NCBI GenBank assembly: GCA_016794465.1
Contig: JAEUKA010000028.1
Span: forward strand, 64,001-124,050
Direction of reading: 5' to 3'
Source: Myxococcales bacterium
Lineage (GTDB): Bacteria; Myxococcota_A; Polyangia; Palsa-1104; JAEUJZ01
Length of the DNA: 60,050 nt
A model generated the notes under the pieces. That model was not told where the DNA came from and searched no databases. It saw only the letters and a program-made list of their open reading frames with translations. This document shows, piece by piece, positions 40,056 to 60,050 of this stretch; position 1 is the first letter of the stretch, and the number at the start of each line of letters is the position of its first letter. The position numbers and the translations under genes were made by a program.

Positions 40056-41267
40056 TCAGCGACGATAACCGATGGCGGAGCAGACTTGATCACGCTGCGC
40101 TGTAGAGAGCGCTAGGAGGGTCGCGATCAAGTCGTCTAGCGTTCCTCGCAGCGTTTCACAGACGCGAGCGCTGCGGGCTCCATCGAGCGCGCTCTGGCTG
40201 ATGTAGTGGCGCTTCGTCACTTCGTCCGAACCATGCCCCAGCGCCTGCGCCACGTAGCTCGAGCTTGCCCCTGCCTGCACTGCCAGCGAGGAATGCAGAC
40301 CACGCAGCGAGTGCGGGCAGACGACCGGCAGTTCGGCTTGATGGCAGTACTTCGTCAGCGCCTTGTGCAGACACGTCGCCGAAAGGACCGTCGAGCCATT
40401 GAGGGAGAAAATCAGCGCATCGGGCTTCAAGCTTGCCGCACGCCTGCGCAGTAGTTCCTTCACGATCGGCGCATCGAGCGCAAGCCGACGCTTGGCGTTC
40501 TTCGTCTTGGTCCCATCCACCACAATCACGCTAGCGTCGCAGTCGAGATCGCGCTTCTTGAGCTTGAGCACTTCGCTACTACGCAAGCCGAGAAACAACT
40601 GCGTCAGCAGTGCCAGCGCTCGCCACTCACCAAGCGATGCACGCTCTGTCAGATAGTCGCTTAGCCGCTTCGCTTCATCCGTCCGAAGCTGTAGCTTCCC
40701 TTTGTTCGCTCTGCCGATTGACTGCACATCATCAAAAGGATTCTTGGCGACAAGCTTCTTTTTCACCGCAAAGCGATACACCGCCTTCACTGCTCTCAGC
40801 GCGATTGCATGCGATGCCACAGCATACTTATCAACTGCCAGCAGATAGAGTGCTTCGGCCTTCTCTGGCGACATATGGGCAGGTTTGTCGAGCTTGGGAA
40901 CGATGCGCATGATCATGTGCTTCACATGAAGCAGCGAACGATCTAGACAGCCACGCTGTCGCTTATACTCGATAAACTGCGCAAGCAAATCACCCACTGT
41001 CAGCTTTGCAGAGTCGTCGAAGCTGGCAAGTAGGTTGCTTTTGGCCGTCTCGGCTTGCTGGACTGAGTCGAATACCAGAGACTTGCGCTTGTCGCCACTC
41101 TTGACGACAAGTCGCCACTTGTCATTGTTCGCGTACGGTCCTAGCACCTTGGGTGCCTCTTGTGGTTCGTCGGCTTGCGTCGCATCCTTCGTCTCTACTC
41201 TCTTGCGTGAGAGCTTGCGCTTTAGACTGCTACGTGGTGCGGTGTATAGATCATTGAGTGCGTTCAT
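40056..41267 (-). mobile_element. int: Tyrosine site-specific recombinase (phage-type integrase), left end of a lower-GC integrative element
   Basis: R...H..R...Y catalytic residues are present (LRSSEVLKLK, HSLRGLHSS, HGSDEVTKRHY). GC drops from this point rightwards. Confidence 0.85.
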
Positions 41268-50218: not shown

Positions 50219-51739
50219 CTACTGCTTCTGCAAGAGCATCAGCGCCAGGGTCTTTTTGCCGTCGGGGCCGTAGTCGATTCGTTCGATGGTCTTCCAGCCT
50301 AGCTCGGCGAGGCTGTCACTGAGCAGCTTTGGGTCGTAGCGACGGACTCGCCACATGAGGAAGCGGCGATCGGGTCTGCCGTCGCGCATCTTGACGCGGG
50401 CGATGGCGTCGAAGCCGTAGCTGCCGGGGACGCCGCCGGGTGGGGCCAGCTCCCAGCGCAGCTCGATGTCCTCGGCACCTTGGCAGTAGCGACGAATCGG
50501 CCCGCTCAGCCAGTTCACATGCGTGGGTCGCAGCTTGCCGTTGCCGATGGGGTCCACTTTGAGGATCTTCTGTCGCTCGCTCGCCGGGGCACGCGCGATC
50601 TGGAGGTCGAACAGAAACAGCTCGCCCGGCTCGCAGCAGCTCAGCGTGTCACGGAAAAAGCGCAGCTCGTCGCTCAGGTTGACGAGCGTGTATCCCAGCA
50701 TCGCGAACAGCCGCGTCCGCCCTCGCAGCGGATTGACCATCATTGGCAGCTTCGGCAAGTCGAGGAAGCTGCCGTGGATGGTGTAGGTGCGAATGTCGGG
50801 CAGCGTCTCGCAGCAGTGACGATAGGCGGCATTCAGCAGCGAGTGGCTCACGTCGAGCAAGAACAGCTCCGTCTGCTTGGGCATGCGAAGCTGCATCTGA
50901 AGATGCTTGACGAGCATCGATTCCGTCTTGCCGTCGCCGCAGCCGAGCGCATCCACGGTGAGCGCCTGTTCTCCAATCAGGTCGGCGACTCGACGAGAAA
51001 CCGTCGCCAGCGGCAGCGTCTCTCGAAACTCAGAGCCATACTCGGGCGACGAACAGGTGGTCAGCCAGTCCTTCGCGCTGTGATGGTCGATGTACACCAG
51101 CGTCTGCTCGAGCTGACCACTCGGACCATTCAGCGTGTCCGCCAGCTCGGTGATCATGCTCACCGGGTCATAGGTCATGCCGAGCCACGAAGTCGGCGTG
51201 TGACGGTAGCCCGCGCTCATCTCGGCGGACAGCTCGATGTCGCTCACGCGCAGGTTTAGCTCGGGCACAGCGAGGAGCTTCAGCATCAAGCTCCGTCGAG
51301 CCTTCCGAGTGTGATGCTCCAACTGGCGAATCGTCGTCGCTGTCACGCCGACGCGATCGGCCAGCCACTCTTGCGTAAGCGCGGCGGCAGTCCGTCGCTG
51401 AAGCAGCCGCTCGCCAAACTTCACCCAGTCAATCGGCCCAATCGCCTCGCTGTCGTCGGTGTCTCCAACCAGCGTCAGCGCCTCCTGAATCGCTCGCACC
51501 GCTCGGTTGTGGTCCTTGACGAGGTGCGGCGGCAAGAGCTGAAGCGAGTGCAGCGTATCAACGAGCTTGCTCTGTACTCGCGAGAGCTGACTAACAGAGT
51601 CCTCTAGCGCCGAGTCCTGCGTCGGCAACTCGGGCGGCATGACGTGCTCTGCATCCGTCTCGAAACTGTCGTGTTCGCCGCTCTTGACCGCTGTCTGTTC
51701 GTGCATGACCGATGCCTCCATTTCGGCCACAGATAGCAC
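50219..51739 (-). CDS. HTH (XRE) domain fused to an EgtD/Methyltransf_33-like SAM-dependent methyltransferase
   Basis: The HTH is LTQEWLADRVGVTATTIRQLE. LGCGDGKT is the SAM-binding loop, and EgtD-like blocks follow (FAMLGYTLVNLSDEL, LFLFDLQIA). Confidence 0.6.
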   Translation of the reverse strand: MLSVAEMEASVMHEQTAVKSGEHDSFETDAEHVMPPELPTQDSALEDSVSQLSRVQSKLVDTLHSLQLLPPHLVKDHNRAVRAIQEALTLVGDTDDSEAIGPIDWVKFGERLLQRRTAAALTQEWLADRVGVTATTIRQLEHHTRKARRSLMLKLLAVPELNLRVSDIELSAEMSAGYRHTPTSWLGMTYDPVSMITELADTLNGPSGQLEQTLVYIDHHSAKDWLTTCSSPEYGSEFRETLPLATVSRRVADLIGEQALTVDALGCGDGKTESMLVKHLQMQLRMPKQTELFLLDVSHSLLNAAYRHCCETLPDIRTYTIHGSFLDLPKLPMMVNPLRGRTRLFAMLGYTLVNLSDELRFFRDTLSCCEPGELFLFDLQIARAPASERQKILKVDPIGNGKLRPTHVNWLSGPIRRYCQGAEDIELRWELAPPGGVPGSYGFDAIARVKMRDGRPDRRFLMWRVRRYDPKLLSDSLAELGWKTIERIDYGPDGKKTLALMLLQKQ

Positions 51740-51919
51740 ACCTAACGCATGCCGGAAGTCCTTTCAGCGACGGAAGCGCGGCAAGGTCACTTGTTCGTTT
51801 TGGTTCGGTTGCCAGTTCGGATCACAGCCGTTTTAGAGGGACTCCGAACTACCCCTTGATGACCTCTGTTCACCCTCCGTTACCAAACCCGAACAGCCAG
51901 ATTCTGAGAGGAAACCGCC

Positions 51920-52249
51920 ATGCAAGAGTCACCAGCCCAGATCGCCACTACTACCGCTGAAACCACCACGACTCTCCCGAAGCAGCGACGAGGCTTCGCG
52001 GTGATGGACCCAGACAAGCTACGTGTGGTCTGTGCTCGCGGCGGACAGACCGCCCACGCGCTAGGCCGGGCACACCGCTTCGACACCGAGAAGGCATCGC
52101 AAGCCGGAAAGAAGGGCGGAGCGACGGTGAGCGCAGATCGCTCCCACATGGCCGAGATCGGCAGCCGAGGCGGCAAAGCCAAGAAGGGCTACCGAGAGAG
52201 GCAAGCCGCACGATGCCAAGCCGAGGCAGAGACGACCCAGATCGGCTGA
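51920..52249 (+). CDS. KGG-repeat general stress protein
   Basis: KGG-type repeats are present: ARGGQTAHALGRAHRF, GKKGGATVSADRSHMAEIGSRGGKAK. Confidence 0.55.
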   Translation: MQESPAQIATTTAETTTTLPKQRRGFAVMDPDKLRVVCARGGQTAHALGRAHRFDTEKASQAGKKGGATVSADRSHMAEIGSRGGKAKKGYRERQAARCQAEAETTQIG

Positions 52250-52440
52250 CCCCGATTTGAGCGCAGATCGCTTGACCCCGATCTGAGCGCAGAGTGCCGT
52301 ACCGCTCGCTCGACCCTGATCGCCAAGCCCCGAGCGGCATGCAGATCGCTTGAGTCCGAGCGCGGCGCCTGTTCGATTGAGCGCCACGTTCCCCGGACAT
52401 CACAACCCTGGCTCGACTGCCGAACCATCCACGCAGATCG
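52250..52440. repeat. Cluster of short direct repeats (gaccccgatYtgagcgcaga x2; gcagatcgcttga x3)
   Basis: The repeats are visible in the intergenic DNA between the KGG gene and the FRG operon. Confidence 0.55.
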
Positions 52441-52540
52441 CTACTTGACCCACATTCCCCGCTGCGGTACGCAAGGCGTTGTAACGGCGCAACCCGCCGT
52501 GCGACCGAGACGATCCTTAAGAACAACAGAGATTGATCCA

Positions 52541-53383
52541 ATGGCATCGATTGAATACAGCTTATTTCGAGCAAAGTTCATCAAGCATCCCCAGAGAGTC
52601 CTATTACATCCAGATTGGACCCCGATGCAGATATTTCTAAGTGCAATAAATGATCGACCTTCCGCTGAGATCCGCCGTGGGTATATTTGGCACGTTGGGA
52701 ACGTTCAGCATTTCACTGAGAGTTCCGGGTATTTTGCAATTGGCCGCACCACGACCTCTACTATTGAAAAATTTGACAGCTCGACTGGTAATTTTGTGGT
52801 TGAGGAACTCGAAGAAAGCCCATACACGCACTGCGTTTTTGATGCACAAATCGGATTTGTCGGAATTGCAAGAAAATCCAGTTTGGCTCAGACTGCGAAG
52901 GGTGTTGCTACGCGCCTAGAGCAGCTATTGAGTCTATCGAAGTCCGTCGCAGACCACAATTGTTCTGTCGAAGTTGCACCGATTCCAGACCCGGAGGGTT
53001 TCCTGCGCGCACTCCACTCCGCCTATCGAGTGACGCGCTTCTCAGCTACGTTCCATGGTCCCAATCCATTTGATGCGGATGAGCATTTTCAAAAACCTCT
53101 GTCCGTCTATCTGTCATCTGCCAATGGCAGAAAAGGCAGGGCACAGATCCAGGGCGAGGACCTTAATCGAGAAGTGCTTCACGCGGTTACTAAGAGCACG
53201 GCTTCTACTGGCAACGAAGCTTCAGCCCGAATATCAAAAACTAAGTCTCAGCGGCCAATAACCATCAACCTCAAAGGCGATCCACTCAAACGCCGTTACA
53301 CAGAAGATGAGCATGAACCCAGAGTAGTCTTGGCTGACCTGACACAGGTGTACCACCGGGTAAGAAGTGATGACCAACGTTGA
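52541..53383 (+). CDS. Hypothetical protein of about 280 aa. First gene of a two-gene low-GC operon whose second gene encodes an FRG-domain protein.
   Basis: ATG 52541 is the likely start (track ORF begins at 52445). GC is about 45-50% against about 60% in the surroundings. The stop overlaps the next start (GTGATGA). Confidence 0.55.
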   Translation: MASIEYSLFRAKFIKHPQRVLLHPDWTPMQIFLSAINDRPSAEIRRGYIWHVGNVQHFTESSGYFAIGRTTTSTIEKFDSSTGNFVVEELEESPYTHCVFDAQIGFVGIARKSSLAQTAKGVATRLEQLLSLSKSVADHNCSVEVAPIPDPEGFLRALHSAYRVTRFSATFHGPNPFDADEHFQKPLSVYLSSANGRKGRAQIQGEDLNREVLHAVTKSTASTGNEASARISKTKSQRPITINLKGDPLKRRYTEDEHEPRVVLADLTQVYHRVRSDDQR

Positions 53384-54164
53384 GATAGTTTCCATCGAAG
53401 ACCTAATCAGGCGCTTTAATGAGTTACCCAATCATTTTTTGTATCGCGGCCAGGCAAATGCGGAATGGTTGCTCACGTCTTCACTGGAACGAGTTGTCGG
53501 TGCCAAGTGGTCGGCAGACCAAGCAAAGAAATTTGAAGATTTCTCACTGCATCAATTTCAATCCAAATTTCATTTGTATGATCGAGAAAATGTGAAGCCT
53601 GATTCGAGATTAGCTTGGTTATCGATCATGCAACATTACGGAGTTCCGACACGGCTTCTGGATTTTACGGAAAGTTCATACGTCGCACTCTATTTCGCGC
53701 TTGAATCCTACAACCCACAGAGTGGGGAGGACTTCTCTGTCTATGCTATTGATTATAGCGGCATAATGGATCGTTCGATTGCCCACATACGTTCCAAGGA
53801 CGGTGGATTCAGCGAAACAAGACAGTCCATGTTCGACAAGCAAGATATGATATTCGACACAGTTGTGGACCGATTTTCTTACGATATTGCATGGAGCGCC
53901 GAACCAAAACAGCTTAATGCCCGCTTGGATCGTCAAGCTGGTTCGTTCTTGCTCTCAGGAAATCGTGGGTTGCGTATTCAGGATGTCCTCGATTCAGCAT
54001 TGTACTCAGAGGTTGCTATGTACAAATTTCGTATTTCTCACGAACTATACCCTAACGTATTTGCCCTTCTTCGGAAAATGAACATCACGAGTAAGAGTCT
54101 CTATGGTGATCTGGAAGGGCTTGCGCGTTCCGTCAAAATGCAGTTGCAGGTCTACTCAATCTAG
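53367..54164 (+). CDS. FRG-domain protein
   Basis: FLYRGQANAEWLLTSSLER ... LSIMQHYGVPTRLLDFTESSYVALYFA matches the FRG domain signature (F-R-G, QHYG.PTRLLD, ALYFA). Confidence 0.7.
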   Translation: MMTNVEIVSIEDLIRRFNELPNHFLYRGQANAEWLLTSSLERVVGAKWSADQAKKFEDFSLHQFQSKFHLYDRENVKPDSRLAWLSIMQHYGVPTRLLDFTESSYVALYFALESYNPQSGEDFSVYAIDYSGIMDRSIAHIRSKDGGFSETRQSMFDKQDMIFDTVVDRFSYDIAWSAEPKQLNARLDRQAGSFLLSGNRGLRIQDVLDSALYSEVAMYKFRISHELYPNVFALLRKMNITSKSLYGDLEGLARSVKMQLQVYSI

Positions 54165-54710
54165 CAGCATATCCAACAACCCCACGCTGCCCGCCCCTTC
54201 CGTCCCGCGCAACTGTAGGCGGTGGCCTCACCTGAACGGCACCGTTGGGAGTTGATCGGTACCCTTCGGCCCCCGTTGTACTAACCGAGCCTCTTGCGTA
54301 TTTTCCGCGATGTGCTAGAGCAGGCGCCGTGCTGCACAAGCTTGCGGCCATTTGATCGTGCTGGCTGGTTCCTGCCATGGAGCAAAGATTGCACGCCCCC
54401 AAAGCAGGATTGTGCGATCATCGGTTTGGGCGCTGTCTGGCTAAAGAAATTAGTGGCAGCCGAGGCTTCCTCTCACATCTCATCAGATGGGAGAGGGGAA
54501 CTCCCAACAGCTTTCTCGATGGGTGGGATGTCATGAGCCCGAACAAACGTCGGTATCGGCAAGGTCCTGAGCCATCCGAGGGCAGTAGTTGTTCGAGAGT
54601 ACTTCAGTTTTCGGTGACCCGAGTGGAGCGACCAACTCTTGCCATCGAGATGCTTGCCGGCCGCTACGAAACTGTGTAAGCGTCCCACCTTCAATAGGAG
54701 TGAGACGATC

Positions 54711-57700
54711 ATGGACTCGCGCCAGAGGGAGATCCCCCGGCTGCTCAATCAGACAGCTACTCACGAAAGTCCGACAGCAATGCCGGCTCCGGCGCCCCAG
54801 TCTCCGCCGCTCAACCTCGACGGATTAATTCGTTCGATGGGGGTCAACCGGCCCTGCCGACACATGCTGCTACTTGGTGCCGGCGCCAGTATTACCTCGG
54901 GGATTCCGTCGGGCTGGCAGTGCATTTGGCAGTGGAAGGCCGAAATTTACATCTCGAATCAGCCTCACGTTTCACAGGCACTCCTTGGCGATCCGACTCT
55001 GCCGCATGTTCAAGATCGCATCCAGGCATGGCTTGATGCGACCGGCGGATTTCCCAAGAATGGTGCCCCTGACGAGTACCAGTTTTTTGCTGAACGTTGT
55101 TACCAGGAAGCTCGTGATCGGCAGAGGTTCTTTGAAAAAATCATCACTGACGGCACACCGAGCCTCGGCTACAAGCTGCTGGCCCTCCTCATCGAAGCCA
55201 GTCACTTCCGATGGATCTGGACGACGAACTTCGACAACATGCTAGGGCGAGCCCGCGACAGCGGACACAAGCGGATCATTCGCGAAGTGGGAATGGATAG
55301 CCGTGATCGAGCGCTCGCGGCTGAGCCGGATGACCAGGCGCTCCAACATATTTTTCTGCACGGTGACTTCCGCTACGACCGGCTCCGCAATACCGCGACG
55401 GAGCTGCAAGCAATGCACGAGGAATTCCGCGGCCAGTTGAGCCAGCAGTGTCTGCACTATCCACTCGTCGTGGTTGGGTACAGCGGCAGAGACGACAGCG
55501 TGATGACAGCGCTCGAGGCCGCCTATGCCCAGCGGGGAGAAGGAGGACTCTACTGGCTCGGCATGCGGGGAAGTAGCCCGCATCCTCGGGTCCAGGCACT
55601 GATCGAGAAAGCGACTGCTCAGGGCCGTCGGGCAGAGTATATCGAATGCGATGGCTTCGATGCTCTCATGCACCAACTGGCCAGGTATCTACTTCGGGAC
55701 GAGCCATGGGCCGGGCGAGCGCACGAACTGATCAAGAGCAGCCCATCGCCAAGGAGAGCCTTTTCCTTGGCCGACTATCACCCGACTGGCCGGATTATCA
55801 AGAGTAACTCGTGGCCAGTCGTTGCGCCGACCCACCTCTATCAGCTGCGCTCCCCAGCCGAGATCCAAAGCTGGGAGGATCTCCGCGAACGAACGGCCAA
55901 GGCAGGTGGACGGATCTGTGCCGGCCTCACCAGCGGCAAGATCATCGCCATGGGCCTTCAGGCAGATATCCTGTCCTGCTTCGGCAGGGAGGCGAGTGAG
56001 CCCATCGAGCAAATCCCGGTCTCGCCGAAAGAACTCTTTTTTGAGGATGGAGTTGTGCTGTCCATTCTTCGGGAGGGACTGGTACGAAGTCTCGCAACAG
56101 GAGGACTTCGCGCTGCCACGGAGCATCGCAGATGGTACCTGTACGATCCGTCCCAGCGACGGACATATCGATGGCAGCATGAAACCGCCGTATTCTATCA
56201 AGCGGTGCTGGTGCGCCTCGAGCAGCGTGCCGGGCAACTCTATCTCTCGCTGATTCCTGAACCATACATACCCGCGGACGAACAGCCGGCTGCGTTTGCC
56301 AAAGGCAGCCTGGCGCCGCTCAAAGCTGCTCTCGTTGGGCGGCAATGGAACCGAGCATTTAATGACGAGCTGAACGAGTGGCGATCCCGTCTTAAGCTCA
56401 ACGCCAAGCTCCAGTCGGTTGCGACGATCTTTCCAGCCGGACATGAAACCGGCTTCCGCTACACCATCCAAGCTGGTCCTCTCTTCATAGAGAAGCACGC
56501 TCGAGATCGTCCTAATCGAGCAGCAGCCCGGCCAGGACCCGCGGCACTGTATCGCTTCAAGGGGTTTGAGCTACGTGAGCCGGAACTCCGGTTCGCTTGT
56601 GGCACCGATTTCCATCCGATCCGCGGATTGACGCAGGGCGGACCAATTGAACTGTCGGCCGGAATTACTTCTCCAAGGCGAGAATTGCGCGTCGGTGTCA
56701 TCTGTCCTGACAGTGCGACCCGGCAGCTCGGTCCTTTTCTCAGGGCTCTTCACAATCCCCATCTCACGGTCGAGACAAAGGAAGAGTACCTGCCGACCTA
56801 TCCTGGCTTCGAGTCGGCCTTCCGTCTGCCGTTACATACTCCACTCGTGTCGGAAGATGGCTGGGTAACAATCCCAAGCCAAACCAGTACTGGCGTGCGC
56901 GAGCAAGCGTTTCAAGAGCTGTGTGGACGTGTGACCTCATCCATCGATCGGCTAGCCGCAGGAGCTGGCGTTGATGTAGTACTCATTTTCATCCCTCGCT
57001 CATGGGCACCGTTTGAGTCGGTAGAAACTGAGACGATGGATCTCGATCTTCACGACCAAATCAAGGCGTACTGTGCCGTGCGCGGTATCCGGACGCAGTT
57101 CCTTCGTGAACATACCCTCGAAAAGCCGCAGCGGGCGGAGGTGCTTTGGTGGTTGGCACTGGCGCTCTATGCCAAGTCCATGCGCACCCCCTGGATCTTG
57201 GCTCGGCCGCAAGAGAACGTCGCCTATGTTGGGATTGGCTATGCCGTCGACCGACGAAACCGAGACCGGCCAATCGTCCTCGGATGCAGCCACATCTTCC
57301 AGTCGAACGGGCTGGGGCTTCGCTTTAACTTGAGCAAGGTTCAGGAGCCAATCTGGCGCGGAAAAAATCCTTACCTGGGACGGGATGATGCCCTTCGCGT
57401 CGGGCTCCAAACCCGCCAGCTCTTTCTTGAATCGCTGGTCAGGCTGCCCTCTCGAGTTCTGATCTGCAAGCGCACCCCGTTCATCAAGGAAGAACTTGAT
57501 GGTCTGCGCGCTGGGCTGACGGGAATCTCATCCCTGGACTTCTTGACCATCGAATATGAGCCGGCCTGGAGATGCCTGGCATGTATCACCAAGGACCAGC
57601 AAATTCTGCCGGCACCCTTTCCGGTTCGTCGGGGTACCGGTGTGTTACTCGATGATGAGAGCTTCTATCTCTGGCTGCATGGCAGCGTCGAACGGATCAA

Positions 57701-57953
57701 TAGCGCGGGCAAGACCTATTACCAAGGCAAGACCCGGATTCCGGCACCAGTACGCGTCCGCCGCTATGGCGGCTCCTCGACCATCGAGCAGCTTGCTCAG
57801 GACCTTCTGGGCCTGTCAAAAATGGATTGGAATACCTTCGACCTCTATGAACAGATGCCAGCCCATGTGACCACTCCGGGGCGCATCGCACGTATTGGCC
57901 GGCTCCTGCAACGACTTGCGCCGGAGTGCTTTGACTACCGCTTGTTCATGTGA
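54711..57953 (+). CDS. Single-polypeptide short prokaryotic Argonaute: SIR2 - APAZ - MID - catalytically inactive PIWI (SPARSA-like fused clade)
   Basis: Sirtuin motifs are GAGASITSGIPSGW (compare GAGISxxxGIPDFR), TTNFDNML and FLHGD. PIWI hallmarks are VLWWLALALYAKSMRTPWIL (compare ALKINAKLGGIPW), VGIGYAVDRR (an inactive counterpart of the GIDVSH strand) and C-terminal RIPAPVRVRRYGG (compare PAPVYYA). ATG 54711 follows aggagtga. Confidence 0.75.
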   Translation: MDSRQREIPRLLNQTATHESPTAMPAPAPQSPPLNLDGLIRSMGVNRPCRHMLLLGAGASITSGIPSGWQCIWQWKAEIYISNQPHVSQALLGDPTLPHVQDRIQAWLDATGGFPKNGAPDEYQFFAERCYQEARDRQRFFEKIITDGTPSLGYKLLALLIEASHFRWIWTTNFDNMLGRARDSGHKRIIREVGMDSRDRALAAEPDDQALQHIFLHGDFRYDRLRNTATELQAMHEEFRGQLSQQCLHYPLVVVGYSGRDDSVMTALEAAYAQRGEGGLYWLGMRGSSPHPRVQALIEKATAQGRRAEYIECDGFDALMHQLARYLLRDEPWAGRAHELIKSSPSPRRAFSLADYHPTGRIIKSNSWPVVAPTHLYQLRSPAEIQSWEDLRERTAKAGGRICAGLTSGKIIAMGLQADILSCFGREASEPIEQIPVSPKELFFEDGVVLSILREGLVRSLATGGLRAATEHRRWYLYDPSQRRTYRWQHETAVFYQAVLVRLEQRAGQLYLSLIPEPYIPADEQPAAFAKGSLAPLKAALVGRQWNRAFNDELNEWRSRLKLNAKLQSVATIFPAGHETGFRYTIQAGPLFIEKHARDRPNRAAARPGPAALYRFKGFELREPELRFACGTDFHPIRGLTQGGPIELSAGITSPRRELRVGVICPDSATRQLGPFLRALHNPHLTVETKEEYLPTYPGFESAFRLPLHTPLVSEDGWVTIPSQTSTGVREQAFQELCGRVTSSIDRLAAGAGVDVVLIFIPRSWAPFESVETETMDLDLHDQIKAYCAVRGIRTQFLREHTLEKPQRAEVLWWLALALYAKSMRTPWILARPQENVAYVGIGYAVDRRNRDRPIVLGCSHIFQSNGLGLRFNLSKVQEPIWRGKNPYLGRDDALRVGLQTRQLFLESLVRLPSRVLICKRTPFIKEELDGLRAGLTGISSLDFLTIEYEPAWRCLACITKDQQILPAPFPVRRGTGVLLDDESFYLWLHGSVERINSAGKTYYQGKTRIPAPVRVRRYGGSSTIEQLAQDLLGLSKMDWNTFDLYEQMPAHVTTPGRIARIGRLLQRLAPECFDYRLFM

Positions 57954-58014: not shown

Positions 58015-59403
58015 CTAGCGGATCGAACTTGATAGCTCAATACCTTTGAGCCGCCGGAACAGAGCAGAAGCAAAGCTATCTGCCATACCCGCAACATAGT
58101 CAGTTGCCTTCAGTATTTTCTGATAAGCAGTTTCCGAATCTCGAACCACTATTCCTGAAGCCTTCAGTACCATCTTTTGCCTGTGAGTTCTTTCGTTCGA
58201 GTGAGCAATCACCGCAGGAATTAGTTCATCGAGAAGTCCAGCTATAATATTGTAGCCTGCGACTTGCATTTCCACGACGAACTGATGCTGATAGCAATGC
58301 TGCTTGGTGAATTCGATGATCTTCTCGAGTTCTGTGTTAGATTCAATAACTTTGATAATTTCCTTCTTATACGTGCCTTCCATGATTTCGGGAAATGTTT
58401 CTTTGTCGAGAAATACCTCGCAGACTTCAGTTCTTAATCTCTGAATTGCTCGCCCTCGTAAGTGAACGATATCATTTGCTTTTTTCGGATCAAAACCATT
58501 GGCTTTCTTAGCAATTTTCCTGATTAGCTCGAGAGCTTCTTTCTTATTTACATATTTTAATCGGATTCCGTCTTCTAAGTCTAATATTGTGTAGCTGATG
58601 TTGTCTGCCGCTTCCACTAAAAATGAGAGAGGATGTCTAGCATGTACTATATCAGCATCTACCTCTTTAGGCAATTTGATCCTATTTAATCCAACATGTC
58701 TTGCAATCATCGCTAAAGCAGATTTGTCCTCCTGAAAGCAGCCATGCTTCTTGGCAGCAATATTATCATGCTGGCAGATCTTAATGTCGTCTCCAGATTC
58801 ACGGGGGTACTTGCAGAACGCAGCTAGGGTTGCCGCTGTCAATTGGAGACCGCCGGTATCAGCATTTTGTAACCGAGTCAGTAACCGGAAGCCCTGAGCA
58901 TTCCCTTCAAACTTGGTTAGATCGCTCTTCTGCCGACGGGTCAACTCACTAGCCAGCAAGGGATTTCTTTCAAAGAAACTGACAAAATATTTGGCGATTG
59001 CATCTTCCCCGGCATGACCAAAAGGAGGGTTGCCGATATCATGCGCTAGGCAGGCAGCATGGATAACATCCCCGATATCGGCTGCAAAGCGCGGAAATTT
59101 CGAGCGTATGGCATTGTCACGCTCAGCCAGTATTGATCCTACGGTATGACCGAGTGACCTGCCAACCGAGGCTACTTCAATGCTATGGGTTAACCGAGAA
59201 TGCACATGATCATTCTCTGGCATTGGAAAAACTTGAGTTTTGTCGTGCATCCGACGAAATGCAGATGAAAATAGGACTCTATCCGAATCTCGATAATAAT
59301 CTGAACGATGTTCTTCCTTACGCTCGGATAAGAATTTATACTGTTCGCTCATGGCATCAAAGGCCAGGCGTCGATTTGATAGTAGCTTCCTCCATTCGTA
59401 CAT
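58015..59403 (-). CDS. dGTPase-family dNTP triphosphohydrolase (HD domain). Putative anti-phage nucleotide-depletion enzyme.
   Basis: RSDYYRDSDRVLFSSAFRRMHDKTQVF...RLTHSIEVASVGRSLG...AACLAHDIGNPPFGH match Dgt motifs. ATG 59403 is preceded by ggggg. The low-GC extension to 59646 is rejected. Confidence 0.7.
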   Translation of the reverse strand: MYEWRKLLSNRRLAFDAMSEQYKFLSERKEEHRSDYYRDSDRVLFSSAFRRMHDKTQVFPMPENDHVHSRLTHSIEVASVGRSLGHTVGSILAERDNAIRSKFPRFAADIGDVIHAACLAHDIGNPPFGHAGEDAIAKYFVSFFERNPLLASELTRRQKSDLTKFEGNAQGFRLLTRLQNADTGGLQLTAATLAAFCKYPRESGDDIKICQHDNIAAKKHGCFQEDKSALAMIARHVGLNRIKLPKEVDADIVHARHPLSFLVEAADNISYTILDLEDGIRLKYVNKKEALELIRKIAKKANGFDPKKANDIVHLRGRAIQRLRTEVCEVFLDKETFPEIMEGTYKKEIIKVIESNTELEKIIEFTKQHCYQHQFVVEMQVAGYNIIAGLLDELIPAVIAHSNERTHRQKMVLKASGIVVRDSETAYQKILKATDYVAGMADSFASALFRRLKGIELSSSIR

Positions 59404-59670
59404 GACACCCCCAAGTAGTGAAGCTGGATACACTAGAAACTTTGGATTTTCGCCCCCCCTAGGCGCAGCATCGTCCAGCAAGTGAGCGCCTGGTGCCTGT
59501 CTAGACAAGCTACCCCAGGATACTGCCAATTTCGTATCTAGAATTACATTATTTGTCACAATTAGTCGATGAACTGACAGGCTGGCGGGTCGTACATCCA
59601 AACGCGGTTTCGGCTGGATGGTCCCGGAACGGTGCGCCTGGACCATGCCGGGTTAGGCGACGGCACCAGA

Positions 59671-59926: not shown

Positions 59927-60050
59927 GATGCGTGAACGAAACTGCGCACGGCTTACCCTTCGGCAACAATTGCACTCAAAAAACGCTTGCCTATTTTTGC
60001 TCGGTGTTCCGGGCATCCGCGCTGTGTTGAGGCCAGGCGAAGCAGGGCTC

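Follow-up and report, generated by a model that had tools for sequence, protein, structure and literature searches.

The 60,050-nucleotide (nt) stretch of Myxococcales bacterium DNA analyzed here (contig JAEUKA010000028.1, positions 64,001 to 124,050; hereafter the window) carries two overlapping genes, which we call A and B, whose products are a basic protein predicted to have the fold of phage lambda RexA and a soluble protein with an FRG domain (Table 1). An earlier interpretation, made from the sequence alone, had singled out this pair as a candidate undescribed anti-phage module. It correctly saw two same-strand genes with a guanine-plus-cytosine (GC) content clearly below that of their surroundings (49.1% for A and 44.9% for B vs. 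58.4% for the window). Together with a low third-codon-position GC—47-48% in the pair vs. 64-81% in the neighboring genes—this marks the pair as compositionally foreign. The sequence-only reading also described a GTGATGA overlap. The string is indeed present, at positions 53367-53373 of the plus strand, but the 4-nt ATGA overlap that it suggested is wrong: the TGA is out of frame with A ((53371-52541) mod 3 = 2), which ends 10 nt further on. The actual overlap is 14 nt and would grow to 17 nt if B began at GTG instead of ATG. Both start codons are fixed by their orthologues (277-285 amino acids [aa] for A and 264-268 aa for B), which align from residue 1. An overlap of similar size is kept in approximately 70 of 72 independent orthologous loci, so translational coupling is still plausible.

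Table 1. Features of the A-B locus and of the surrounding island in the window.
Feature	Coordinates	Strand	Remarks
Gene A	52541..53383	+	ATG 52541, TGA 53381-53383, 280 aa (reading of the open reading frame [ORF])
Gene B	53370..54164	+	ATG 53370, TAG 54164, 264 aa (ORF reading)
A/B overlap, 14 nt	53370..53383	+	Read from sequence; likely translational coupling
Upstream intergenic region	52250..52540	+	Presumed promoter site; membership in module uncertain
Tyrosine integrase	40056-41267	-	Near island start
SIR2-APAZ-pAgo fusion	about 54711-57953		Downstream of B; PADLOC pAgo 1020 bits; Pfam SIR2_2
dGTPase	58015-59646	-	PADLOC 234 bits; TIGR01353 319 bits
Boundary motif copy 1, ~45 nt, bipartite	54260..54304	+	At sister-strain breakpoint
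Boundary motif copy 2	59954-59997	Same orientation as copy 1	Window search

A and B form one conserved, horizontally mobile two-gene unit. B directly follows A in 20 of the 20 loci obtained from three contig look-ups and from a scan of 185,579 species, each represented by a single genome, in which a peptide-pattern search found 15 distinct loci. Scans of metagenomes and of IMG/VR viral contigs, performed with a 13-sequence subset of the A family, added 81 loci with A identities of 40-74%, and every one of these with room downstream carries B after A, the sole exception being a locus in which an insertion sequence (IS) has interrupted B (L095). The pair is thus conserved as a unit, in agreement with the sequence-only reading. 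Moreover, across the 72 independent loci in which both genes are full length, the identity of A to its window counterpart correlates with that of B to its own (r = 0.89). The pair occurs in at least four phyla—Pseudomonadota, Myxococcota (the window), Verrucomicrobiota and Acidobacteriota—with hosts including Gallionella, Thiocapsa, Caballeronia, Achromobacter, Methylobacter, Caldimonas, Ideonella and Janthinobacterium, as well as two Verrucomicrobiota and one Terriglobia genome, and the window B is 100% identical to a protein annotated from a Myxococcales metagenome-assembled genome. Its flanks are unrelated between genomes (biotin synthesis genes in one, EamA and cytochrome c genes in another, hypF in a third), and such completely different surroundings argue that the cassette moves as two genes. 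In the interrupted locus, an IS630-like transposase gene (about 1160-1900) splits the B orthologue soon after its start, while B is intact in the near-identical locus L096, a difference that fits a costly or toxic B.

A is a cytosolic protein without transmembrane segments and with an isoelectric point (pI) of 8.8. Searches of Pfam, NCBIfam, PHROGs and PADLOC returned no match to it, even at E values up to 10. Its family is nonetheless sizeable: a 90%-identity database contains 434 matches, and clustering at 50% identity gives 496 clusters, with lengths almost always close to 280 aa. The AlphaFold2 model of A, built from an alignment of 79 diverse family members, has a predicted local distance difference test score (pLDDT) of 95.3, and its best match among solved structures is lambda RexA, a phage-exclusion sensor and not a housekeeping protein, which leaves the earlier interpretation standing on this point. 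The model falls in the RexA fold class (a split globular domain plus a dimerization domain; RdgC/IML3/CHL4 class); the paper on the RexA crystal structure likewise names RdgC, IML3 and CHL4 when it lists proteins structurally related to RexA itself (PMC11077077). The pI and this DNA-binding fold class suggest that A may bind DNA, possibly as a dimer like RexA. The most recurrent weak Pfam match in the family is DUF4747 (PF15931), which appears below threshold in 4 of the 79 members (best E 0.002) and has been linked to Rex-like sensors including RexA and CarolAnn gp44 (PMC6426606, PMC7542560). Some A relatives carry a precomputed PF15931 tag, which was reproduced by none of those that we re-scanned. 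Comparison of the A profile with PDB sequences produced chance matches only, which were discarded.

B bears the FRG domain that had been recognized in the second protein (Pfam PF08867, E 1.7e-26, 93.4 bits vs. a cutoff of 25). It is soluble, with a pI of 5.9 and no hydrophobic segment above threshold, and it matches 15 PDC-S15 models of PADLOC (best PDLC04937, E 9.1e-46, residues 19-261) and phrog_4962 (E 1e-34). The module can therefore be called undescribed as far as A and the pairing are concerned—no description of a RexA-like protein paired with FRG was found in the literature that could be searched—but not for its FRG half, which PADLOC already lists as PDC-S15. PDC-S15 is catalogued as a single-gene entry by its "S" name, whereas the FRG subfamily of B is always preceded by A, a gene recognized by no PADLOC model. 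For this subfamily, the catalogue should thus be corrected because the unit is two genes, not one.

Approximately 16 polar residues are invariant across 77 B orthologues, among them R26 (in a Y-R-G strand), H89, R95, D98, S102, E178, D187 and Q189, as well as T94. This pattern resembles that of an enzyme active site. The N-terminal aromatic-Arg-Gly strand motif (Y25-R26-G27) resembles the Arg strand of R-S-E toxins. The immune effectors and toxins of the ADP-ribosyltransferase (ART) superfamily include RES, DarT, cholera/pertussis-type toxins and Tpt1/KptA. Aravind's group has placed Frg in this superfamily as a predicted member and considered it a potential NADase effector (PMC9503650). Frg also figures in the ART family lists of PMC12522546. 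B is a candidate ADP-ribosyltransferase-fold enzyme, presumably with NAD+ chemistry; an ExE-type catalytic motif could not be placed in it, the candidates being E178 or D187-x-Q189. The AlphaFold2 model of B has a pLDDT of 88; no close solved relative was found from this model or from PDB searches, nor did we find a solved FRG structure, and matches of the B profile to PDB sequences were only chance ones, to SET-domain proteins, which were rejected. No experimental test of FRG as an NADase, and likewise no tested function of PDC-S15, was found in the searchable literature. The C-terminal helices of B (window 54050-54161, residues about 224-263, FALLRKMNITSKSLYGDLxGLARS) are almost invariant in orthologues. 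These helices alone also match two separate short profiles, PDLC04928 and phrog_37144, and may form an interaction or regulatory module that recurs on its own.

In a sister clade, A has a different partner. For five more distant members of the A family (P0147, P0405, P0420, P0208 and P0426), the next gene, which abuts or overlaps theirs, is of another kind, its product being 173-184 aa when full length. In the four full-length cases, this product has 3-4 predicted transmembrane segments and belongs to no Pfam family; the partner of P0147 is a 78-aa hydrophobic fragment only, and two distant A relatives sit on contigs too short for full-length partners. A RexB-like topology, with about four transmembrane helices, was found at four loci (L109, L110, L112 and L116) and not in B. 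We use "RexB-like" for likeness to RexB and CarolAnn gp43 in size, topology and position only, since a BLASTP comparison of the membrane partner with CarolAnn gp43 revealed no similarity. In a neighbor-joining tree, FRG-paired and membrane-paired A proteins fall into separate clades. Conversely, 26 viral contigs encoding distant FRG proteins have no A-family gene in the flanks that were fetched. The existence of both membrane-paired A relatives and A-free FRG proteins indicates that both halves are modular, the combination of A with FRG being specific to one clade of each family. One membrane-paired relative (L116) adjoins genes for BglII, EVE and AAA_13 proteins. Another (L109, 1-7200) sits among repeated DUF4160/DUF2442 pairs and three fragments of group II intron-type reverse transcriptases (RVT_1/GIIM), in what is a highly rearranged mobile region.

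The interpretation that we favor, with a probability of roughly 55%, is that A-B is an abortive-infection module of the Rex type, made of a sensor and an effector, with an FRG enzyme in place of the membrane effector. A and B would be co-produced from their overlapping frames, and A, a cytosolic basic protein of the RexA/RdgC fold, would control B, presumably by contacting it. Upon sensing a cue of infection—for example, phage DNA or a DNA-protein intermediate—A would release or activate B, which would then consume NAD+ or ADP-ribosylate a cellular or phage target, so that growth would stop and the infection be aborted. In the sister clade, the position of B is filled by the four-segment RexB-like membrane protein. 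That A-B is some sort of conflict module, whether for defense or of the toxin type, is a broader proposition, which we hold with good confidence. A more far-reaching one, namely that RexA-fold proteins are modular sensors with swappable effectors of the RexB type or FRG, and that FRG is a new NAD+-directed abortive-infection effector, can be put forward only tentatively.

Several of the above observations could also be accommodated by a toxin-antitoxin addiction module, in which B would be constitutively toxic and A a proteinaceous antitoxin, and which would stabilize mobile DNA without any phage sensing. The layout, with two overlapping genes and the putative neutralizer first, is that expected of such a module, as are the mobility of the cassette in unrelated contexts and the disruption of B by an IS element in L095. 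Other toxins of the ART superfamily pair in this way, RES-Xre and DarTG among them. We nevertheless regard this as unlikely. First, A is large (280 aa) and strongly conserved, has a RexA-class fold and matches no antitoxin family. Second, the RexB-like membrane partner in the sister clade fits better with a sensor that has swappable effectors. Third, no A-like neighbor accompanies the distant FRG proteins of viral contigs, which implies that FRG does not generally need A. It should be borne in mind that many toxin-antitoxin modules are also defense systems, so these two readings overlap.

Comparison of A-B with systems of the RexAB type—RexA/RexB of lambda, gp44/gp43 of the Gordonia phage CarolAnn, gp30/gp31 of the mycobacteriophage Sbash and RexABpp of Pseudomonas putida—highlights similarities and differences. 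In all of these the genes are likewise adjacent and co-oriented with the cytosolic component first, and located on mobile DNA. The CarolAnn genes overlap as A and B do, and A has the size of lambda RexA (280 vs. 279 aa). The main difference is that the partner in RexAB-type systems is a membrane channel, whereas in A-B it is a soluble FRG enzyme without a transmembrane segment; a 2026 paper counts only five Rex-like systems, all of them with membrane partners (PMC12894663), and RexA homologues without RexB, called "orphan", are mentioned in the paper on the RexA structure (PMC11077077). Unlike RexAB-type systems, A-B does not lie beside a cI-type repressor, and, one IMG/VR contig aside, the contigs on which it was found are chromosomal or metagenomic. 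The roles of the two proteins might also be the reverse of those that we propose, as in mycobacteriophage Butters, where the effector is the cytosolic RexA-like protein, which its partner holds in check (PMC7542560, PMC12894663). By analogy with Butters gp30/gp31, A would be an antiviral effector, for example one acting through binding of phage DNA or replication intermediates, with B as the protein that modulates or sequesters it. A basic protein (pI 8.8) of a DNA-binding fold class would suit such a role. However, the approximately 16 invariant polar residues of B look enzymatic rather than those of a passive sequestering protein, and FRG proteins also occur alone, as PDC-S15 and in viral contigs, making role reversal improbable.

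Inspection of the loci in other genomes provides further clues in favor of a Rex-type defense module. In L017 (7039-17525), the pair is enclosed by a type I restriction-modification operon, whose genes run HsdM, a 465-aa ORF at the place of HsdS, A, B, a fragment of HsdR, a PDC-S05 gene and HsdR. The HsdR fragment in this operon is 223 aa long and matches the HsdR N terminus, the second HsdR being full length, and this duplication suggests insertion by recombination. A DRT4/6-type reverse transcriptase is encoded 1 kb from the pair in L013, and a TIR-TPR gene adjoins the pair in L108, an IMG/VR viral contig with a tape-measure gene. In L010, the pair is located between a Ppl-like gene and a gene for a NERD/UvrD-like helicase, with a methyltransferase gene further on, and L012 similarly has defense-like helicase and ATPase genes. 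These contexts bear on whether the pair might have nothing to do with immunity, being instead a DNA-metabolism or stress pair that is mobile by chance, for instance a modulator of recombination like RdgC together with an NAD-dependent accessory enzyme. Such a pair could have the housekeeping flanks that are seen at several loci, and it would agree with there being no phenotype on record. It would be hard to reconcile, however, with a patchy distribution produced by horizontal transfer across phyla (the 15 distinct loci in the 185,579-species collection), with a GC content foreign to the surroundings, with the location inside a restriction-modification operon or next to DRT, TIR and prokaryotic Argonaute (pAgo) genes, or with the match of B to the PADLOC defense candidate PDC-S15. 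We consequently give this explanation little weight.

A number of points weigh against the Rex-type interpretation. To begin with, the A-family profile aligned to lambda RexA and to CarolAnn gp44 with probabilities of 0.2% and 0.15%, respectively (hhalign), and the window A does not reach Pfam RexA (PF15969) or DUF4747; lambda RexA itself matches PF15969 at 1e-97. Because these profile comparisons failed, we do not claim sequence homology of A to RexA: going by its modeled fold and by its context, A is RexA-like, and it is not a member of the Pfam RexA family. In addition, a tblastn search with A of isolate-phage and plasmid collections found no match. The defense neighborhood asserted by the sequence-only reading is borne out by defense genes in the window and at several other loci, but flanks elsewhere (L001, L003 and L009) are purely housekeeping, and defense context here refers to loci inspected individually. 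Finally, no experiment on FRG or on the A-B pair was found in the searchable literature.

If A-B does function as we propose, it would be of use for a question that goes back to the 1950s and the exclusion experiments with rII and lambda. No abortive-infection system has been known for longer than Rex. What triggers RexA and how it switches its partner are still being asked, and work on Rex has been hampered by its membrane effector. A RexA-like sensor acting on a soluble enzyme would be a tractable model, since a soluble effector would permit in vitro reconstitution of what a Rex-type sensor recognizes. Experiments on A-B would also provide a first way into the function of the FRG domain.

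In the window, A-B is part of an island that also contains, ahead of the pair, genes for a helicase and a helix-turn-helix (HTH) methyltransferase and a KGG-motif small ORF and, after it, genes for a SIR2-APAZ-pAgo fusion and a dGTPase. The sequence-only reading was right in reporting a SIR2-Argonaute gene just downstream of B and a dGTPase nearby, both of which are matched by the models given in Table 1. Its description of the element as integrase-bounded holds for the left side, where there is one tyrosine integrase, but not for the right, as the island ends beyond the window; there is no tRNA. The dGTPase gene has the lowest GC of the region (39-46%), and its product falls below NCBIfam equivalog cutoffs while passing the dGTP_triPase subfamily and PADLOC dGTPase models. 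It is probably an acquired, defense-type enzyme and not a housekeeping copy.

The adjacency of the Argonaute gene to the pair is real but incidental, because sister strains have other genes there. Contigs with an identical B are 97.6-99.9% identical to the window up to positions 54280-54284, i.e., 116-120 nt after the stop codon of B, and then continue with unrelated genes. That strains share everything up to this breakpoint and then differ indicates that the Argonaute is swappable hotspot cargo and no partner of A-B; the SIR2-Argonaute beside the pair is thus best viewed as independent cargo at a recombination hotspot. In two of these contigs (L021, 11287-17680, and L023), the slot held by pAgo and dGTPase in the window is occupied by Pkinase, DUF2252, radical SAM, Kinase-PPPase and HTTM genes. 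In another (L022), which comes from a different assembly, a 4.07-kb block corresponding to 50219-54284 is 99.5% identical, with both flanks unrelated to the window. Besides A and B, this shared block carries the KGG-motif ORF and, on the minus strand, the HTH-Methyltransf_33 gene. In L021, the latter is broken up into two ORFs and is probably a pseudogene. A functional tie of A-B to its neighbors was considered and rejected: homologues of the HTH-methyltransferase, KGG-motif and pAgo genes accompany the pair in same-species contigs only, the methyltransferase gene is split in L021, and the DNA after B varies between strains.

A bipartite motif—TACCCTTCGG, N13-24, CTTGCNTATTTT—marks the sister-strain breakpoint. 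It is present in exactly two copies in the window, which bracket the approximately 5.7-kb segment carrying pAgo and dGTPase, and L021, L022 and L023 each have one diverged copy at the breakpoint, followed by different cargo. The motif showed no significant RNA fold, and its placement suggests the boundary of a cassette or a site of recombination.

On the other side of the pair, the intergenic region upstream of A is conserved in same-species contigs only. No sigma-70 consensus site was found upstream of A, and scanning the surroundings of the operon for promoters, terminators and Rfam families returned no match. Ahead of gene A, after the small ORF with the KGG motif, comes an array of 26-nt tandem repeats (52233-52368), which starts within the end of that ORF and lies mostly inside the intergenic region. 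It is made of 2.2 clean copies of the consensus CAGATCGCCTGACCCCGATCTGAGCG plus degenerate copies, and might serve the A-B promoter in the manner of an operator.

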